NCBI GenBank assembly: GCA_963675295.2
Contig: CAXXKJ010000002.1
Span: 1,024,001 to 1,088,000 of the forward strand
Length of the DNA: 64,000 nucleotides
Direction of reading: 5' to 3'
From: a bacterium
Lineage (GTDB): Bacteria > Electryoneota > Electryoneia > Electryoneales > Electryoneaceae
Part shown: one piece after another, positions 2,374 to 60,191 of the stretch
Position numbering within the stretch: the first letter of the stretch is position 1
Layout: each line of letters opens with the position of its first letter
Made by a program: the position numbers and the translations under genes
The notes under the pieces: generated by a model
Seen by the model: the letters and a program-made list of their open reading frames with translations, nothing else
What the model was told of the DNA's origin: nothing
Database searches by the model: none

Positions 2374-3468
2374 ATGGGGCTGAACCGAGAATTAATTGAA
2401 CGCCAGGTATCGCTGGCGAAAGAACGTTTGACTGAGGTCGAACGTGAGATGTCGGATGCGTCCGTCGTCACCGACCCGCGTGCGATGAGCAAGTTGGGGC
2501 GTGAACATCGTCGTCTCAAGGAAGTCATCGACGCTTCCGCCGATCTGGACAAGATCGAGCAGGATCTGAAGGGCGCACGGCAGCTGGTTTCCGACACGCC
2601 GGAAGAGGACGAGATGCACACCCTCGCGGCGGCGGAAGTCGAGGAACTTGAACCGCAATTTGAGGCGGCGGAGAACCGTCTGCAGTTGGCGTTAATTCCG
2701 CCTGACGATTCGGACGAGAAGACGGCGATCCTCGAGGTTCGTGCCGGCACCGGCGGCGAGGAAGCCGGGTTGTTTGCCGGGGACCTGTTGCGCATGTACC
2801 AGCGGTATTGCGAGCGCATGGGTTGGAAGATGGAAGAAATTTCCGTCAGCGGCAGCGACATGGGCGGGTTCAAGGAAGTCGTGGTCTCGATCAAGGGCGA
2901 GGGCTCGTACGGTCTGCTCAAGTTCGAGTCCGGGGTGCATCGTGTCCAGCGTGTCCCGGCCACCGAATCACAGGGCCGGATCCACACCTCCGCGGCGTCG
3001 GTCGCTGTGTTGCCGGAAGCGGAAGAGGTGGACGTCGAGATCAACGAGGGCGATCTGCGCATTGATACCTTCCGGGCCTCGGGCGCGGGCGGGCAGCATG
3101 TAAACAAGACCGAATCAGCGATCCGAATCACGCATTTGCCGACCAATGTCGTGGTCTCGTGCCAGGACGAGAAGAGCCAGCACAAGAACAAGGCGAAGGC
3201 GATGCATGTGCTGCGTTCCCGGTTGTATGAAAAAGCGCTCGAGGAAGAGCGTTCGAAGCGGTCGGAAAGCCGTAAGTTGCTGGTCGGTTCCGGCGACCGC
3301 AGTGCAAAAATCCGCACCTACAATTTTCCCCAGGGCCGGGTGACCGATCACCGGATCAACCTCACCCTGTATCGTCTCAGCGAAGTTCTGGACGGCGATT
3401 TGACTGACCTGATCGACGCCCTGCGCCTGCGTGATTCCGAGGACCGGCTGCGGGAAGGAGTCTCGTGA
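2374..3468 (+). CDS. prfA: Peptide chain release factor 1
   Basis: [20 protein letters not shown] (PxT anticodon of RF1), GAGGQHVN and [16 protein letters not shown] motifs. Confidence 0.97.
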
Positions 3469-3484: not shown

Positions 3485-4432
3485 GTGACGCGCGCGGAAA
3501 TCATCAGGGACAGCACCTACCGTTTGCATGAGGCAGGCTGGGAGGATGCGCGCAACCTCGCCGAACTGTTGCTGATTCACGCGATGGGCGTGGAACGGTA
3601 CCACATTTACCTCAACCCGCACCAACCTGTCGGCGGCCGGCAGAAGCAGGTTTTCGACCGCATGCTCGCCCGCTCGTTGAAGCACGAACCGTTGGAATAC
3701 ATCACTGGCCAGGCTGAATTTTTCGGTCTCGAGCTGGAAATTCATCCGGGGGTGTTGATTCCGCGTCCGGAAACCGAGCTGCTGATTGACCATGCGAAGC
3801 GGGTATCCGGTGACGGTGTCCGCCGTGCGATGGAAATCGGTTGTGGTTCCGGGGCGCTGACCCTGGCGTTGTTCGAGCAGCGGATCGCGCAGGAAGTGGT
3901 TGCGGTGGACATCTCGCTGCAGGCGATTAAAACCACGGCGACGAATGCCAGCCGCTACGGCTTTTTCAAGGTCGATCCGAAGAAGGACGAACGTGCCTCG
4001 GAACTGCCGGACAATGCCGTGCTGTACCAGCGCAGGTCGCTCGATCCATTGACAAAACGGGAACACATCGACCGGCTGTGGTTGATTCTCGGGGATGCGT
4101 TCAGCGTGACCTTCCGTCCGCCGATTCATCCCGTGCCGTTGATATTGTCCAATCCGCCGTACGTGACGCTGCAGGACTGGGAGAATTTGCCGCCGCACAT
4201 CAAGGATCATGAGCCGAAGGAAGCGTTGATTGCCGGCGAGGATGGGTTCGACATTCACCGCAAACTGACACGCCGGCTGAAGAATTGGCTGTCGACCGGG
4301 GGCGCGTTTGTTGGTGAGATCGGAGCAGGACAGGGTGAAGAGGTGGTGAAGCTGCACCAGAGTTGGGCGAAACGGGTGGAACTGCACCAGGACTACGCCG
4401 ATCTCGACCGGATCGTGATTGCGTTCAAGTGA
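3485..4432 (+). CDS. prmC: Release factor glutamine methyltransferase
   Basis: EPLEYITG, VLIPRPETE, EIGCGSG, SNPPY, HEP..AL..G.DG motifs; follows prfA. GTG start at 3485 is inferred. Confidence 0.93.
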   Translation: MTRAEIIRDSTYRLHEAGWEDARNLAELLLIHAMGVERYHIYLNPHQPVGGRQKQVFDRMLARSLKHEPLEYITGQAEFFGLELEIHPGVLIPRPETELLIDHAKRVSGDGVRRAMEIGCGSGALTLALFEQRIAQEVVAVDISLQAIKTTATNASRYGFFKVDPKKDERASELPDNAVLYQRRSLDPLTKREHIDRLWLILGDAFSVTFRPPIHPVPLILSNPPYVTLQDWENLPPHIKDHEPKEALIAGEDGFDIHRKLTRRLKNWLSTGGAFVGEIGAGQGEEVVKLHQSWAKRVELHQDYADLDRIVIAFK

Positions 4433-17005: not shown

Positions 17006-18511
17006 ATGCAGCCTGTCGCACAAGAACGTCCTTCTAGCACCACCCCCGTCGTAACGCCACTCCATGCCATGCTCGACATCGGCAGCAATGCAATGAAACT
17101 GGCGGTTTGCAGCTATCCCGAAGCAAATTCATTCCGCACCGTCCACCTCGATGAGCGAATAACTCGACTCAACCGGGGGATCGACGACGAAGGCAACATC
17201 GATGAGGCGACGATTGAGCGTGTCCTCGATGCTGCCGCATACCTGATTCAGGAAGCGGAGAATCGCGGCGCGGTTGTACGTGGCGCGGTTGGCACCGCAG
17301 CCTTGCGCAAGGCGAATAACGCCGTCGAGCTGATCAACCGGCTCAACGATGAGCACGGAGTCAGCACCCGCATCCTGACACCGAAAGAAGAAGCCACTGC
17401 GGGATTTTACGCCGTGCGTGAGGTTCAGTTGGCGCAGAAGGAACGTGTCAACGGACACGGATTCAAGCCGCTGGTCACCTTCGACCTTGGCGGCCGGTCG
17501 GTGGAGATGACGGTGGGTTCCGGTGCGATTCCGGAATCGTACATCAGCCTCGAGCTGGGGGCCAGCCACCTGTGGAAGTCCGCGCCGACCAGTGATCCAC
17601 CTGTGCCGGCGGAACTGGAACATATCAAGAACGTCGTCCGGGAACAGTTGAAACATGTCGAACGTCCGCCGCGTGACGCCGAAGTCACATTAATTGGCGC
17701 GACCGCGACGACGCTCACCGGCTATGTTCCGATGCTGCTGGCGAAGGAACACGGGCCGGACGCGATCAACTACCTCGATCGTGATATCGTGCGTGCTCTG
17801 GTAGAGAAGCTATCGCAGATGACAGTCAGCCAGCGGCGGCAGTTGCCGGGCAATCCGTTGCGTGCGGACATCATCCTGCACGGTGCGATCGCCATCGAGC
17901 AGGCGTTCAAATACCTCGGGTTCCGTCACGCGGAAGTGTCGCCGGACGGCGTCGCGGCCGGGACGATGATCTCCGAATTGAAGGGGATGCCGCTCGATTT
18001 CGAGCCGGTGCATGTGCGGCTGCCGGGTGTAAACTTCCGGCCGTTCACGCGGTCGGACCGGTCTGGTGAGGTGCTGTTCGCACTACGCCGCAGCGACGGT
18101 CGGATCTGCCTGCAACGCAAGATCGATTACCCGTCCGGGATCTATCGCATCCCGGGTGGAGGGGTGGATCGCGGCGAAGACGTACAGGCGGCCTACCACC
18201 GGGAACTTTACGAGGAAACCGGGTTGCAGGGCATTCGTTCGGTACCGTTGGCGACGTTGACCTACACGGGACCGGATGAGTACACGCTGCCGTTCGAAAG
18301 CCGGTTGTACCTGGCTGAAATCGGGGACGCTGACCCAATGCCGATCGATTCGGACGAAGGCATCGAGGATTATGCGCCGGTGGCACCGGAAAACCTGCCG
18401 CTGTGGGTGGACCGGCTGGAAATGCTGAGTGGCAGCATGCAGGCGTGGGGCATTTTCCGCGCGGCGGCGGTGCGCACGCTGATTGACAGGTTGCAGAACA
18501 TCCCGGTGTGA
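17006..18511 (+). CDS. Ppx/GppA phosphatase fused to a C-terminal Nudix hydrolase
   Basis: DIGSNAMKL, GTAALRKA.N, EEA, DLGGRSVE, RADII motifs; complete Nudix box GGVDRGEDVQAAYHRELYEETG. ATG at 17006 follows GGAGG. Confidence 0.85.
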   Translation: MQPVAQERPSSTTPVVTPLHAMLDIGSNAMKLAVCSYPEANSFRTVHLDERITRLNRGIDDEGNIDEATIERVLDAAAYLIQEAENRGAVVRGAVGTAALRKANNAVELINRLNDEHGVSTRILTPKEEATAGFYAVREVQLAQKERVNGHGFKPLVTFDLGGRSVEMTVGSGAIPESYISLELGASHLWKSAPTSDPPVPAELEHIKNVVREQLKHVERPPRDAEVTLIGATATTLTGYVPMLLAKEHGPDAINYLDRDIVRALVEKLSQMTVSQRRQLPGNPLRADIILHGAIAIEQAFKYLGFRHAEVSPDGVAAGTMISELKGMPLDFEPVHVRLPGVNFRPFTRSDRSGEVLFALRRSDGRICLQRKIDYPSGIYRIPGGGVDRGEDVQAAYHRELYEETGLQGIRSVPLATLTYTGPDEYTLPFESRLYLAEIGDADPMPIDSDEGIEDYAPVAPENLPLWVDRLEMLSGSMQAWGIFRAAAVRTLIDRLQNIPV

Positions 18512-18578: not shown

Positions 18579-18906
18579 TGGACAGGTGAAGCGTGTCCAT
18601 GAGGGAAGAAGCGTGCCCGCGTGTATGACGTGCCGGTGTCCGCTTGCGGACGCGGACCTGATACCGATCATTCAACGTGTTGGATCAGCCGCGGTAGCGA
18701 GAAGAAGCTCCCGCGGGTACCGACAGCGAGCTCGTCAGGATAATCCCGGACTGAAGTCCGAGGGCATGTCCGTTAAGGTACGGTGTCGGTGTTGTATCAC
18801 GAGCGGAGGATCCACGACATGAATGTCGTGGGAATAAATCACACACTGGTTACGTTGTCCGTTCCAGGAGCAACATACCCGCGTTTGCAAGCAAACACGG
18901 GCACTT
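18579..18906. repeat. Array of diverse short palindromes (REP/BIME-like)
   Basis: TGGACA..TGAAG..TGTCCA; GTCCGCTTGCGGAC; CCGCGG..CCGCGG; CGGACTGAAGTCCG; CCACGACATGAATGTCGTGG; CCCGCGTTTGCAAGCAAACACGGG. Confidence 0.6.
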
Positions 18907-18911
18907 TATTT

Positions 18912-19045
18912 TCTCAAGTCTCAAGTCTCAAGTTTCAAGTCTCAAGTCTCAAGTCTCAAGTCTCAAGTCTCAAGTCTCAAGTCTCAAGTCTCACGTTTCA
19001 CGTCTCAGATCACAGGTCCAGATCTCCAGACTCAGGTCTCAAGTC
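18912..19045. repeat. (TCTCAAG)n tandem heptamer decaying toward the gene end
   Basis: About 11 near-perfect units, then degenerate ones, abutting the stop codon at 19046-19048. Confidence 0.93.
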
Positions 19046-21343
19046 TTACTTCAGCAGAAGAACCTTCTGCATCGTGGCGATACCACCAGGCTGCTGAAGT
19101 TGGATGAAGTACACACCGCTGGCCAGATCGCCTGCGTTGAATGAAACGGTGTGCTCACCGGCTGCCAGTTGATCGTCACTGAGCCGCATCACTTCTCGTC
19201 CCTGAACGTTGTACAGCCGCAGGGACACCGATCCTTCTGATGGCAGGGTGAAGCTGACCGAAGCGGCTTCGTTGAACGGATTCGGGTGCACGCTCAGCGC
19301 GTGAGACACACCGCCGGGATCCTCACCTGGTGGCGGTGGTGGGGCGGGAATGTCGCCTTGCGAGTCGAGTTCCTTACTGAAGTAAAAATACGCGGATTCG
19401 TCGATGACACCCGGAAACTCACCGGTGTAGGCGTCCAGGCTGTACCGTCCACCCGGGGCGTTGGGTGGAACATTCATTGTCTGCCCCGTGATGGTGGTGA
19501 AGCCGGGCTCAGCGGTGAGCAATTGCTGATCAGGGTCGCCATAGTTATCGCCGTCTGGCAGCCTGACCTGTGACCACAGATCGGTGGTGACGGGGTCCGG
19601 TGAATCGTTGGCGATGATATAGAAGTACTCCAGCGTGCCACCGTTCTCCGCGATCAGGGACGTTGTCGTTTCGGCGTACAGTTCCAGCGGGAATCCACGT
19701 TCCTCGAGATAGACCTGCAGGTCGTCAATGGTCACACCGGGCCGTTGGATGAAGGCGTCCGAGGCAAAGTAGAATCCGAGCCACACCTGCTGGCCCTGGT
19801 AGGCGCTGAGGTCGAACTCGACCGGTACCCAGATACTGTTGTTCGGGCCGGTGTTGTTGAAGCAGGGCTGCCAGCCGTTCACCCAGACGCCGTCCGTATC
19901 GGGATAGCCGCCGATGGGTTCGAGCAGTGTCCACGTGTCGCCAGCGTCGGTGGAAATCTGGACGTTGTAGCCGTCATAGTCCTCGATACTGTACCAGTGC
20001 CAGTAGCTGAGACGCGCGTTTCCACTAATCACGCGGAAGGATTGCAAAGTTATCAGCCAATCCTGCGCCAGCGGGAGGTAGTTGCCGTCGTGGCGAGTGC
20101 CCCAGGCATGTTCGCCCGAATGAGCCTGGTCCGGCTGGTTTTCCGGAGCCCCGTATTCCCAGTTATTATTGCCATCGTCCGCGGACAGCCGTCCCCGGTT
20201 TACCTCCATCGTGCTGATGTAATTCTGAGCCATTGGCTGTGGGAATTTGTACAACTCGATCGCGGTTGTCGTTGACGGTGCCACGATCTGCACATCAACG
20301 GTTTCTGAGTAGAATCCCTCAGCGCGGGCGTAGACTTCGATCGTCTGCCCTTCAACAAATGGTCCGATGTTGAACCTACCGTCTGCCGCACTGACGACGG
20401 AGTAATTGGTCGTCTGCACGGTCGCATCGGGGATCGGCTTGGCGGAGATGGCATTACGGACGATACCGTGGATGAACACGGTTGGTTCGACCAGGTCAAA
20501 CTGGACTGACAGGCTGTCGTGCAGCAGGTCGGCCGGCATCGCGTTCAGCAGATATTGCGTACCGATGGAACCGTCATCATTCTGAATACCGACGGTGCAG
20601 CTTTCGGTGTGCATTTCTTCATCAATATCAAGGTATTGAATGCGGATCTTGCCGTCATCACGCAGCAGCAGCTGTGCGGTGACATTGTCCTGATCCGGCC
20701 CATCGGGATATTCATCAATCTCGATAAAGGAGATGATGAGCACCTGGTGCCCGCCGATTTCACGGGTCTCGTAGTAGATGTTGCCACCATCAACGCCGTT
20801 GTCCGGATCCAGATCATCCCAGAACCAGGCGATCATTGATCCATAAAACGGCGACGGGATCGGGTAGTTCAACGCAAAGACAAAGGTTGGGAAAAAGCTG
20901 ATAACGCCGTTCGACTGTACCCAGAACTGGGTTTTGGTTTCGCCGTAGAATGGGAACTCGAAGCCGATCTCGAACGGGCCAACAACGTCCTCATCGTCCA
21001 GCATGTATTGCGCGGCGATCTCTTCGCCGGTTTGGGTGATATCGTACCAGGTGAACCCGGGGCCGTCCTCTTCATCGCTGTCGATCGCTCGGTACCCGAA
21101 GGCATCCGGGCCGGTCTGGAGGTCGATCTGGTTGCGGTCGTATCGGATGTAGGGGCGCAGCAGATTGATTTGCGCGGGAGTCAGCGATTCGCCCTCGCTC
21201 CATGCCTCAACGGCCTGCTTGAAGAGGGGAGAGCGGAGATCAATGGCGGTTCCCTCCGCCGGATCCGGGCTGACCTTGGCAATCGCCAGACCAGAGAGGA
21301 ACAGGAGGGTGAACAATGCAAGGATGGTGGTTCGGTAGTGCAT
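19046..21343 (-). CDS. Secreted multidomain protein (NIDO-like, carboxypeptidase-regulatory-like, MAM/jelly-roll-like) with T9SS-type CTD; paralog 1
   Basis: Signal peptide from ATG 21343; GPDAFGY..DSDE..GP motif; HWYSIE..DGYNVQISTD.G.TW; HPNPFN...KVLLLK. Confidence 0.8.
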   Translation of the reverse strand: MHYRTTILALFTLLFLSGLAIAKVSPDPAEGTAIDLRSPLFKQAVEAWSEGESLTPAQINLLRPYIRYDRNQIDLQTGPDAFGYRAIDSDEEDGPGFTWYDITQTGEEIAAQYMLDDEDVVGPFEIGFEFPFYGETKTQFWVQSNGVISFFPTFVFALNYPIPSPFYGSMIAWFWDDLDPDNGVDGGNIYYETREIGGHQVLIISFIEIDEYPDGPDQDNVTAQLLLRDDGKIRIQYLDIDEEMHTESCTVGIQNDDGSIGTQYLLNAMPADLLHDSLSVQFDLVEPTVFIHGIVRNAISAKPIPDATVQTTNYSVVSAADGRFNIGPFVEGQTIEVYARAEGFYSETVDVQIVAPSTTTAIELYKFPQPMAQNYISTMEVNRGRLSADDGNNNWEYGAPENQPDQAHSGEHAWGTRHDGNYLPLAQDWLITLQSFRVISGNARLSYWHWYSIEDYDGYNVQISTDAGDTWTLLEPIGGYPDTDGVWVNGWQPCFNNTGPNNSIWVPVEFDLSAYQGQQVWLGFYFASDAFIQRPGVTIDDLQVYLEERGFPLELYAETTTSLIAENGGTLEYFYIIANDSPDPVTTDLWSQVRLPDGDNYGDPDQQLLTAEPGFTTITGQTMNVPPNAPGGRYSLDAYTGEFPGVIDESAYFYFSKELDSQGDIPAPPPPPGEDPGGVSHALSVHPNPFNEAASVSFTLPSEGSVSLRLYNVQGREVMRLSDDQLAAGEHTVSFNAGDLASGVYFIQLQQPGGIATMQKVLLLK

Positions 21344-21570
21344 TCCGTTTTTCCTTCTGGCAATGGCGTGCATTGGGTACGCCGGATATGATTGTGTGTT
21401 TCTGGAACTTTATTTCCGGAAAACAAGCTGCTGTCCGCGAATGCAAAGATCAAGCACGGTGTGGAAGAATATACGGATAATGTACGAAAACGGAGCCCCG
21501 GATGGCTTGACTGAAGATGCCTGTCTGCAAATTCATTCTGGCCATCGAATCCGGCCTCCGGAACGGTAAA

Positions 21571-51634: not shown

Positions 51635-51662
51635 ACACATACTGCAGCCTGCCGACCGCAGC

Positions 51663-55421: not shown

Positions 55422-55587
55422 TCGACGGGGAGTTGGCGACTGATTGTCAGGGGCGGCCGGAATCGGCTGTCCCTTTTGTCTGTGGTGGATTGCCGGCCTC
55501 TGAGAGTTTTGTTCGGAGACGGTGAGGGTAACATTCTGATTCTCGCGGTACTTGCGGGAAAAATTGTGTACCTTGGCTTGGATTTGT

Positions 55588-56086
55588 GGAGTGGCCGAGG
55601 AGGTTGGACGGTCGCCTGCGTCTCGTCAATGCTGCTTGGAAAGCCGCGCTTGAGGTGGGACAGGGGAGGAAAGTCCGAACTCCAGAGGACAGGATGCCGG
55701 CTAACCGCCGGGCGCCGTGAGGCGACGGACAGTGCAGCAGAGAACAGACCGCCGATGGCCGGGGCGGAGGCGTGACACAGGATTGTCATGCGTCCGTCCC
55801 GGCACAGGCAAGGGTGAAACGGTGGGGTAAGAGCCCACCGCGCGGCTGGTAACAGGCGTGGCACGGTAAACCCCATCCGGAGCAAGGCCAAATAGGCGGG
55901 GAGGCCACTGAGGAAGTGCCCGTGTTTGCTTGCAAACGCGGTCGTTCCGGCCACGTGATTGTCCGTCACGGTTGCACCCGCGGGTAGGCTGCGTCGAGCG
56001 CGTTGGAAACAAGGCGCCCAGATCGATGACCGTCACTCTCCTCTGTGAGAGTACAGAATTCGGCTTACAGACCCCCTCACCGCTCC
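55588..56086 (+). ncRNA. rnpB: RNase P RNA, bacterial type A, unusually long (about 480-500 nt)
   Basis: GAGGAAAGTCC (CR I), AGTGCAGCAGAGAAC, AGGGTGAAACGG, GGTAAGAGC, GGTAAACCCC, GAGCAAG, ACAGAATTCGGCTTA (CR V); the 5' and 3' ends pair as P1. Ends are approximate. Confidence 0.93.
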
Positions 56087-56220
56087 CTGATCTTTGAGAG
56101 GAACCGTCGAGCACCTGCCGGATTGTTGAACCGGAGTGTGAGTGCCGACGACATGACGCCGGAACAAATACCCCGGCGTCCCCAGGCTTTGAAACACGTG
56201 AACAACCGATAGATTCTAAC

Positions 56221-58891: not shown

Positions 58892-58970
58892 GCCAACCGT
58901 TGCGTCAGGGGGGATGAGACGGTACGACGGATTTACTGAGTACAGCTTACACTGTTTAAGGGAGAGAAAG

Positions 58971-60191
58971 ATGAAGAAGACACTTCTGACGCTTTGTGCG
59001 GTCGTAGGAATTGCATCCATGGCAATGGCGTATTCTGGTGGCCCGCCCGCTGGCTATGCCGGCAACAACGGGTCGTATTGCACGCAGTGTCACAGCAGTT
59101 TCGGGTTGAATTCCGGTGATGGCATGCTCGATTTGACTCAGATGACCGAGTATACGCCGGGCGAGACCTACACGATGGAAGTGATGTTGAGTGACCAGGG
59201 TCAGAACCGCTGGGGTTTCCAAGTCGCGGCGGAAGATGGCGGCGGCAGTTTCGCCGGCATGTTCGCGATCACGGATCCGACGAACACTCAGCTGAACAGC
59301 AGTAACTATGTCAACCACACGTCAGCCGGCACCAACGCTGGTGATCCGAGCGGCAACATGTGGACGTTTGACTGGACGGCTCCGGCAGCTGGTACCGGCC
59401 CGGTGACGTTCTATGTGGCGGGTAACGCAGCCAATAACAACTTCAGCAGCTCGGGCGACTACATCTACGCGATCGAAATGACGGTGGATGAAGCGGCTCC
59501 GGCTTTGTATGGTCTGACCACGACCGGCATCAACACCATGATTCCGGCGTCCGGTGGCAACGTGACCTACAGCATTGATTTCTTCACCAACGTGCCGCAG
59601 TCGTTCAGCAACGTGAACTACTGGACAACGGTGACTCTGCCGGACGGCAGCGAATCCAACCGTCTTGCGTTCATCACGACGAATGTTCCGGCGAACGCCG
59701 ACATCTTCATTCCGATGATGGCGCAGGAAATTCCGTCGTTCGCACCGGCTGGCATGTACACGCACAACTCGTTCCTGGGCTACTTCCCGAACGCTGTGTT
59801 GATGGATTCGTTCAGCTTCGAGAAGTCGGCGAACGGTTCGAACTCGGTGCCGGTGCATGGTTGGGACGCGTCCGGTGAGTGGCTGGAAGTGACCGCCGAC
59901 GGCGAGTCGGTTGTCGACCTGCCGACCGAGTACGCGCTCAATGCGGCGTACCCGAATCCGTTCAACGCGATGACGAACGTTTCGGTGACGTTGCCGGAAA
60001 CCGCGGACATGAAGTTGCGCGTGACCAACCTGCAGGGTCAGGAAGTTGCGATCCTCAGCGAGGGTAGGCTCAGCGCGGGTCAGCATACGTTCAGCTTTGA
60101 CGCCGGCGACTTGAGCTCCGGCATGTACTTCATCCACGCGAATGTTCCGGGCAAGATGAGCCAGGTGCAGCGTGTAACACTGGTGAAGTAA
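58971..60191 (+). CDS. Secreted Reeler-like (choice-of-anchor V) domain protein with CxxCH and T9SS-type CTD
   Basis: Signal peptide; YSGGPP.G..G....CTQCH; YTPGETY; WGFQ; WTFDWTAP...GPVTFYVAGNAAN; YPNPFN...RVTLVK. Confidence 0.8.
   Translation: MKKTLLTLCAVVGIASMAMAYSGGPPAGYAGNNGSYCTQCHSSFGLNSGDGMLDLTQMTEYTPGETYTMEVMLSDQGQNRWGFQVAAEDGGGSFAGMFAITDPTNTQLNSSNYVNHTSAGTNAGDPSGNMWTFDWTAPAAGTGPVTFYVAGNAANNNFSSSGDYIYAIEMTVDEAAPALYGLTTTGINTMIPASGGNVTYSIDFFTNVPQSFSNVNYWTTVTLPDGSESNRLAFITTNVPANADIFIPMMAQEIPSFAPAGMYTHNSFLGYFPNAVLMDSFSFEKSANGSNSVPVHGWDASGEWLEVTADGESVVDLPTEYALNAAYPNPFNAMTNVSVTLPETADMKLRVTNLQGQEVAILSEGRLSAGQHTFSFDAGDLSSGMYFIHANVPGKMSQVQRVTLVK

Follow-up and report, generated by a model that had tools for sequence, protein, structure and literature searches.

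The window analysed here is a 64-kb stretch (positions 1024001-1088000 of contig C2) of a two-contig bacterial assembly of 4.81 Mb, designated G000 below; positions given without a contig name refer to it. It contains rnpB, the gene for a bacterial class A RNase P RNA, at 55596-56083 on the forward strand (488 nt), which matches the Rfam model RF00010 over model positions 1-367 with 265.5 bits (gathering score 100). A scan of the whole genome with this model returns a single match, the sole rnpB copy, and rnpA is present at C2:339608-339922. Within rnpB, at 55914-55941 (+), lies the 28-mer AAGTGCCCGTGTTTGCTTGCAAACGCGG, whose exact reverse complement occupies 18879-18906 of the window; this relation, first claimed by a reading of the sequence alone (hereafter the sequence-only reading), is borne out when the window is read directly. 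With up to three mismatches allowed, the 28-mer is found in exactly two places in the window, and 100 dinucleotide-preserving shuffles of the window contained no match to it.

The partner copy (18879-18906, minus strand) lies between two convergent genes, in a gap of 535 nt bounded by the ends of their open reading frames at 18511 (+) and 19046 (-). The same gap holds a second copy of the element at 18630-18655 (+; C2:1042630-1042655), which belongs to a TCCG/CGGA subfamily and has five mismatches to the family core defined below, and a tandem array of the heptamer TCTCAAG (19.4 units, 18912-19046) that abuts the head side of the copy at 18879-18906. A near-palindrome in this gap, CCCGGACTGAAGTCCGAGGG at 18745-18770, is similar to the hairpin CCACGGACTGAAGTCCGTGG of an insertion in the rnpB of a relative (G003, see below) and may be a member of another repeat family. 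Two large, secreted-looking proteins encoded in the window, at 19046-21373 (-) and 58914-60191 (+), end in a tail resembling a type IX secretion sorting domain; such tails fit the weak, Bacteroidota-like placement of the host obtained with RecJ.

In the cmscan alignment, the ribozyme core is aligned throughout, and the 28-mer falls into an insertion without a counterpart in RF00010, after the 5' strand of P16 and ahead of P17. The minimum-free-energy fold of 55884-55995 contains P15, P16 and P17 and, in the P16-P17 branch, an additional P16.1-like helix at 55903-55952 (+), which consists of a GGCC/GGCC base, a GGAA/UUCC segment and, distally, the hairpin formed by the element, with a 9-bp stem that includes a U.G pair, a CUUG loop and the head AAGTGCC. 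The G(CUUG)C-loop hairpin foreseen from the sequence is present in this fold, and the extra helix folded alone has a z-score of -2.5. The assignment of the element to the P16/P17 region of rnpB holds, but no new site was opened there: a pre-existing, variable P16.1-like helix is occupied at its distal end. The P17 loop, UGUCCG, is complementary to its P6 partner CGGACA at 55726-55731, and in the modelled structure the ribozyme core is intact, with P15, the GGU motif of L15, P16, P17 and the P6 partner all predicted to be preserved. When genomic matches are counted along rnpB in bins of 10 nt, nt 311-350 have 32-62 each, nt 351-380 have 8-9 and all other bins have 0-4. The element in rnpB is a single palindrome; heptamer arrays accompany intergenic copies, and none is found in rnpB. 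The direct GGCCAC that flanks the element was considered as a target-site duplication; this was discarded, since GGCC/GGCC forms the base of the helix and covaries.

Short-read unitigs from two DNA samples (X1 and X2) cover 55500-55941 and 55912-56200, respectively to the left and right of the element, with zero differences. They break at the repeat edges, each holding the whole element together with unique rnpB sequence on one side, and they give no independent support, since the assembly may have been built from the X1 and X2 runs. Metatranscriptome contigs from two libraries also reach the locus, one of depth 3 covering 55911-56068 with three differences and one of depth 2.5 covering 55924-56007 with none. 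Both join the element to the 3' domain, a weak sign that it is part of the rnpB transcript, given that RNA libraries can hold DNA. Across the RNA runs, the common sequence is confined to conserved parts of rnpB. The breaks exactly at the edges of the element are what would be expected if a repeat had been stitched into rnpB by joining contigs at a repeated word. Such an artefact is extremely unlikely, however, given that both unitigs carry the entire element with unique rnpB flank in two samples without differences, that contigs assembled from RNA libraries in other studies run from it into the 3' domain, that a homologous element occurs at the same place in a related genome (G001), and that the helix without the element would have no closing loop.

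The genome as a whole holds 10 exact copies of the 28-mer, the rnpB copy matching nine other places, and 60 copies within three mismatches, against none for the reversed-pattern control. A 26-nt core with up to six substitutions gives 163 raw matches (reversed control 0), which, after self-overlaps of the palindrome are merged, correspond to 149 elements of a family that we call REP1; 139 of these have at most five mismatches to the core and are the set analysed here. The conserved unit measures 30 nt and reads A-N-GTGCC, a 9-bp stem with a CTTG loop, and CGCGG-AC; the loop is kept in 119 of the 139 copies, the GTGCC head in 109 and a T.G at the fourth stem pair in 133. The stem asymmetry and the non-palindromic flank that the sequence-only reading had noted in the matching pair are therefore both features of the family (T.G and GTGCC, respectively). 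Two stem pairs vary among C-G, T-A, A-T and G-C and are nevertheless Watson-Crick in nearly all copies (pair 11-20 in 137/139, pair 12-19 in 135/139): the stem is maintained by compensatory changes, and the hairpin is under selection. Four large stem subfamilies can be distinguished, TTG/CAA (42 of the 139), CCG/CGG (32), CTG/CAG (31) and CAG/CTG (17), the rnpB copy being of the TTTG/CAAA type.

REP1 copies avoid coding sequence. By a crude codon-usage test of the flanks, made with no gene caller, 2/139 copies lie within a continuous reading frame, compared with 42.9% of 3000 random places, and in 119/139 copies neither flank is coding-like, compared with 22.9% of the random places. The codon-usage test was used instead of stop-to-stop open reading frames, which proved non-discriminating, long spurious frames spanning even rnpB. 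Neighbouring copies within 150 nt of each other are mostly in the same orientation (26 pairs, with 2 convergent and 0 divergent). Tandem repeats with units of 6-9 nt occur within 90 nt of the head side of 28/139 copies and of the tail side of 7/139, and in 44 of 3000 random 90-mers; the units of the arrays beside the heads vary from place to place. Rfam has no family match at four repeat loci. Of the RNA genes compared with the four repeat families of the genome, rnpB alone contains a match; the 50 tRNA genes, the single tmRNA gene and the approximate rRNA operon are free of overlaps. Taken together, these properties support the assignment of the 28-mer to a lineage-specific family of repetitive extragenic palindromes (REPs) of the REP/RAYT type, RAYT standing for REP-associated tyrosine transposase.

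A candidate for the cognate transposase is encoded at C2:1305246-1305800, where an open reading frame of 184 codons scores 96.5 bits on the RAYT model NF047646 (cut-off 80). Two REP1 copies (+) lie upstream, the nearer ending 13 nt before the ATG, and one copy (-) starts 35 nt past the stop; the gene is single-copy and stands between REP1 elements of opposite orientation. The arrangement recurs in G007, a genome of a sister genus, whose RAYT (91.3 bits) has two REP1-type copies upstream and four inverted ones downstream, and a tblastn search of G000 with this protein leads to C2:1305159-1305788 (43% identity, E-value 8e-38). A first genome scan with the Pfam model Y1_Tnp had found 12 places, eight of them identical copies of an IS200-like element and four single ones; the cognate RAYT, which reaches 18.6 bits on that model, was missed for this reason. 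The IS200-like transposase, with 124.3 bits on Y1_Tnp for each copy, is located at C1:26543 and at C2:1839730, 2156867, 2784561, 3505698, 3580594, 3957328 and 4003957.

Three further open reading frames, B, C and D, were considered as the REP1 transposase and rejected, as they score 63-74 bits on NF047646, below the cut-off, and are flanked by palindromes other than REP1. The RAYT-like ORF B (70 bits) lies between palindromes of the form GGGGACACTT...AAGTGTCCCC (L047:2533-2564 and 3192-3223, within C2:4008533-4009223), a family with 292 strand-wise matches in the genome, or roughly 146 places. ORF C, located at a contig end, has a GGGACAG-type palindrome upstream. ORF D, on the small contig, has inverted GTGCCCCTGATGGCTCCGCCAGCAGGG repeats on both sides (L049:3310-3341 and 3916-4000, within C1:220310-221000), and about 74 copies of this repeat exist; the genes that match ORF D in G001 and G003 carry tandem arrays of 3-10 repeat copies per side. 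A GTGCC head and an (A)TCATCCG tail are common to REP1, the D-type repeat and a further family described below (family 2). The genome holds several co-resident palindrome families, at least four, each with its own RAYT-like gene.

The distribution of REP1 was followed in 16 genomes of the family with a pattern that leaves four stem positions free and tolerates two mismatches, the reversed controls all giving 0. REP1 is present in seven of the 16 and the pattern was not found in the other nine, with 130 matches in G000, 116 in G001, 56 in G003 (where the head is AGGCC), 15 in G002, 12 in G012, 3 in G007 and 1 in G013; it is abundant in the genus alone. A search for the exact pattern across 185,579 species, each represented by a single genome, yielded records of just one other genome (56 stretches). 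RecJ of G000 is 96.8% identical to that of G001, 91.5% to that of G002, 88.1% to that of G003, 80.7% to that of G007 and 62-69% to those of three others, and the same protein gives weak evidence that this uncultured lineage is Bacteroidota-like.

Turnover of the family was assessed at REP1 loci of G001 whose two flanks map adjacently in G000. Some of them (L081 and L082) hold the same variant in both genomes, others (for instance L125 and L070) hold different compensatory stem variants, and others again (L084 and L101) have REP1 in G001 and none in G000. The empty sites delimit the mobile unit to no sharp length, with ragged boundaries of about 35-56 nt and no target duplication. The one at L084 corresponds to about 51635-51659 of the window, just after a gene end, where G001 has some 56 extra bases made up of heptamer-like repeats and a REP1 copy. 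These differences of presence and of variant between G000 and G001 are indirect signs of a mobility that the RAYT may catalyse.

Matches to rnpB were obtained in 29 of 31 genomes searched, and 15 rnpBs of the same family were aligned. In 12 of the 15, a hairpin-forming segment with covarying base pairs occupies the place between P16 and P17, the helix base being GGCC/GGCC, GTCG/CGAC, GGCG/CGCC, GGUGC/GCACC or GGCGC/GCGCC, which indicates that the helix is an old, variable P16.1-like expansion. In the remaining three (G008, G011 and G015), P16 is followed directly by P17, with no extra helix. G002, of the same genus, has a 14-nt hairpin only, GGCGTGAAAGCGCC, at the site. The counterpart in G001, AAGTGACCGTGATTGTACGCATTCGCGG, has the shape of a REP and departs from REP1 in 7 of 28 positions; the genome of G001 holds no second copy of it within three mismatches. 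G003 and the sister-genus genome G007 have a common loop, GGGAMCGTGATGACCCCC, on covarying stems. Between G000 and G001, 327 of 337 positions of the rnpB core are identical, compared with 31/52 in the extra helix and 30/44 in an extension of P3. No clean empty-site allele was found among the close relatives, G001 having a diverged look-alike, and a metagenome scan with an rnpB 25-mer gave five contigs, all from other genera and without REP1, and no closer alleles. A P12 extension at 55762-55800 of the window is common to G007 and missing in the closest relatives G001 and G002, a distribution that points to patchy peripheral helices across the genus.

The rnpB of G003, with 594 nt, contains an insertion of about 150 nt in P12 that is closed by an 11-bp inverted repeat (L041:1665-1818). 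The insertion comprises a REP with the head TTGCC and a reverse-oriented REP1, arranged tail to tail as a convergent doublet, together with the palindrome CCACGGACTGAAGTCCGTGG mentioned above; its 62-nt core (insertion nt 61-122) recurs in at least 10 other places of G003 with 82-94% identity. This cluster is an independent second case of REP sequence in rnpB. Two of the four species of the genus have REP material in rnpB, in two different helices, and the length of the gene within the genus ranges from 388 to 594 nt. REP1 copies also lie 118-300 nt downstream of rnpB in G001 and G002.

The sequence-only reading had proposed that a small mobile palindrome was absorbed into an essential ribozyme, and the copy number, the Rfam alignment and the relatives all support this view. 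In our preferred explanation, to which we assign a probability of about 0.85, a copy of a REP/RAYT-type element now makes up the distal 28-30 nt of a P16.1-like helix in the sole rnpB of the genome, the ribozyme works and the element is most likely neutral. The copy would have entered the DNA that encodes the tip of a variable peripheral helix, either by RAYT-mediated transposition of a single strand, an activity that is putative here, or by recombination with another copy. Read on the sense strand, the element would fold into a stable hairpin with a U.G wobble and a CUUG tetraloop, and as such its effect would be confined to lengthening a helix directed away from the catalytic core. With P15, the L15 GGU motif, P16, P17 and the P6 partner left as they were, the RNA would remain an active ribozyme, and the element would be transcribed as part of it, most likely without consequence for the host.

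How the copy came to be there can also be imagined without a transposition at this site: a helix tip that was already REP-like, whether from a much older insertion or as a duplicate of the neighbouring P17, may have been brought to the current master sequence in the lineage of G000, through gene conversion by a copy from elsewhere in the genome. The diverged but REP-shaped variant at the same place in G001 would be in keeping with such overwriting, and by our alignment four of its seven differences from REP1 are the state found in G003. Likewise, GGGAMCGTGATGACCCCC of G003 and G007 agrees with the REP1 head at 10 of 13 positions in our alignment, and the resemblance may on this account predate the present copy, gene conversion and transposition being inseparable in that case. 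The switch between compensatory variants at L125 and L070 looks like replacement rather than point mutation, and the G000 copy is an exact consensus although the helix around it has diverged far more from G001 than the core has. On the other hand, the motif of G003 and G007 sits in a loop, outside any REP-type stem, and its likeness to REP1 may be due to chance; G000 and G001 also have different sequence on either side of the element within the helix, as would equally be expected from separate events; and the four genomes delimit no conversion tract. We consider overwriting of this kind possible, though doubtful.

The reverse relationship, in which the hairpin arose within the ribozyme and the repeat family descends from copies that left it, was the outcome that the sequence-only reading had set against its own proposal. 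It has very little probability. REP1 occurs together with a REP1-flanked RAYT in G007, and REP1 also occurs in G002 and G012, and the rnpBs of these genomes are without it, which excludes rnpB as the source of the 28-mer; moreover, the rnpB copy falls within one of the four large stem subfamilies (42 of the 139 copies). What can be said for this course is that the neighbouring P17 hairpin recurs in a repeat family, as if this part of rnpB could give up or take in sequence.

The P17 hairpin in question, CGTGATTGTCCGTCACG at 55954-55970 (+), lies 13 nt after the resident REP and matches the most frequent form of a longer repeat, family 2, in all of its 17 nt. Elsewhere in G000 it has five exact copies and nine with one mismatch (C2:2452147, 3581511, 4373284, 3930548 and 43870, and nine more), and all copies outside rnpB stand behind a GTGCC-type head, in a longer hairpin with the REP tail TCATCCG. 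Copies of a strict 23-mer of family 2 number about 14 in G000 and 24 in G001, with one doubtful match at three mismatches in G002; a generalised pattern has 35 copies in G001 and none in G002, G003, G007 and G012, and the family is confined, among the genomes searched, to the clade of G000 and G001. In G002 and G003 the P17-type word occurs within rnpB only, and comparison with these two genomes clearly shows that P17 was inherited vertically in rnpB. A second sub-variant of family 2, containing TTGTCCGCCGG, agrees at 14 of 16 positions with the older P17 state preserved in G003. A lone P17-like word outside rnpB, CGTGGTGGTCCGTCACG, is found in G001 (C70:70532-70548), one base away from the P17 of G002. 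We tentatively entertain a two-way flow between rnpB and the REPs, in which recombination of the resident REP with P17 seeded family 2 and a piece of the ribozyme was amplified as selfish DNA; the reverse direction, with family 2 overwriting P17, is possible. If the exchange is real, a REP population would here have captured part of a host RNA, for which examples are rare.

A further reading is that the element has been put to use. The hairpin could have been kept for a binding partner, such as a REP-binding protein, the RAYT or a nuclease, and might then tie RNase P to transcripts that bear REPs. An unmutated consensus copy in the midst of a fast-evolving helix, oriented such that a U.G wobble forms rather than a C.A mismatch, would agree with such recruitment; G002 and most of the relatives do without the element, however, and in G003 the REP is in another helix and in the opposite orientation. 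Recruitment to a function accordingly seems improbable, and a most likely neutral REP copy at the tip of the P16.1-like helix remains our preferred reading. It would mean that the tip of a peripheral helix in an essential ribozyme can be exchanged for a selfish hairpin while the core stays untouched, and would show where foreign sequence is tolerated in this RNA. REP insertions may also explain part of the variation in RNase P RNA length among close relatives. The REP/RAYT systems are extended by these data to an uncultured lineage, weakly placed as Bacteroidota-like, with at least four co-resident palindrome families. On the practical side, insertions of this kind break short-read assemblies inside rnpB and lower the scores of covariance models.

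Viewed against known systems, the element is of an ordinary kind; its location is unusual, yet tolerated. REP elements and REPINs are described as mobilised by RAYTs (PMC3116915, PMC3337134), and a structure of the E. coli enzyme, TnpA-REP, is available (4er8). REP1 resembles these systems in being short and imperfectly palindromic, with a conserved head outside the palindrome, in its roughly 140 copies, nearly all extragenic and confined to one lineage, and in the single-copy HUH/Y1 transposase-like gene flanked by inverted copies. It departs from classical REPINs in that its copies are mostly in direct tandem and not in inverted doublets, and from the usual REP systems in the one copy that lies inside a ribozyme gene and in its uncultured host. 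The head differs as well, being GTGCC in REP1 and GTAG in the REPs of E. coli.

Repeats inside RNA genes are already known from the short tandem repeats (STRRs) in cyanobacterial rnpB and from Rickettsia palindromic elements (RPEs) in tmRNA, as far as the sources cited below go, and a literature search for work joining REP, MITE or RPE palindromes with RNase P RNA found nothing relevant. The sequence-only reading had cited RPEs as a precedent for insertion into both rnpB and tmRNA. The latter is confirmed by the part of PMC1458961 that reports 526 RPEs in R. bellii, one of them in the tmRNA gene and 53 in frame in protein genes, whereas the literature searched gave no case in rnpB. RPEs and REP1 have one thing in common, namely that both are dispersed palindromic elements able to enter an RNA gene; RPEs are often in frame in protein genes, compared with at most 2/139 of the REP1 copies. 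The REP1 unit of about 30 nt is also shorter, RPEs being far longer than that.

As to the helix, P16.1 is described in a section of PMC9945441 as an extra helix of the P15/P16/P17 region in Methylacidiphilum infernorum and other bacteria of the PVC group, and it is listed for some bacterial type A RNAs in a table of PMC2858038. The helix described here differs from that expansion in that its distal part is a copy of a genomic repeat and in that the lineage is not PVC. A parallel within RNase P RNA itself is provided by the STRRs that heterocyst-forming cyanobacteria carry in rnpB (Vioque 1997, Nucleic Acids Res 25:3471, as cited in PMC2858038). In both cases a short repeat found throughout the genome forms part of a peripheral helix of the ribozyme; STRRs are tandem heptamers, whereas the element in the rnpB of G000 is a single palindrome of a family with its own transposase. 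The helix that carries the repeat is likewise another one, STRRs being located in P12 of the cyanobacterial RNA and the REP1 copy forming the tip of a P16.1-like helix.
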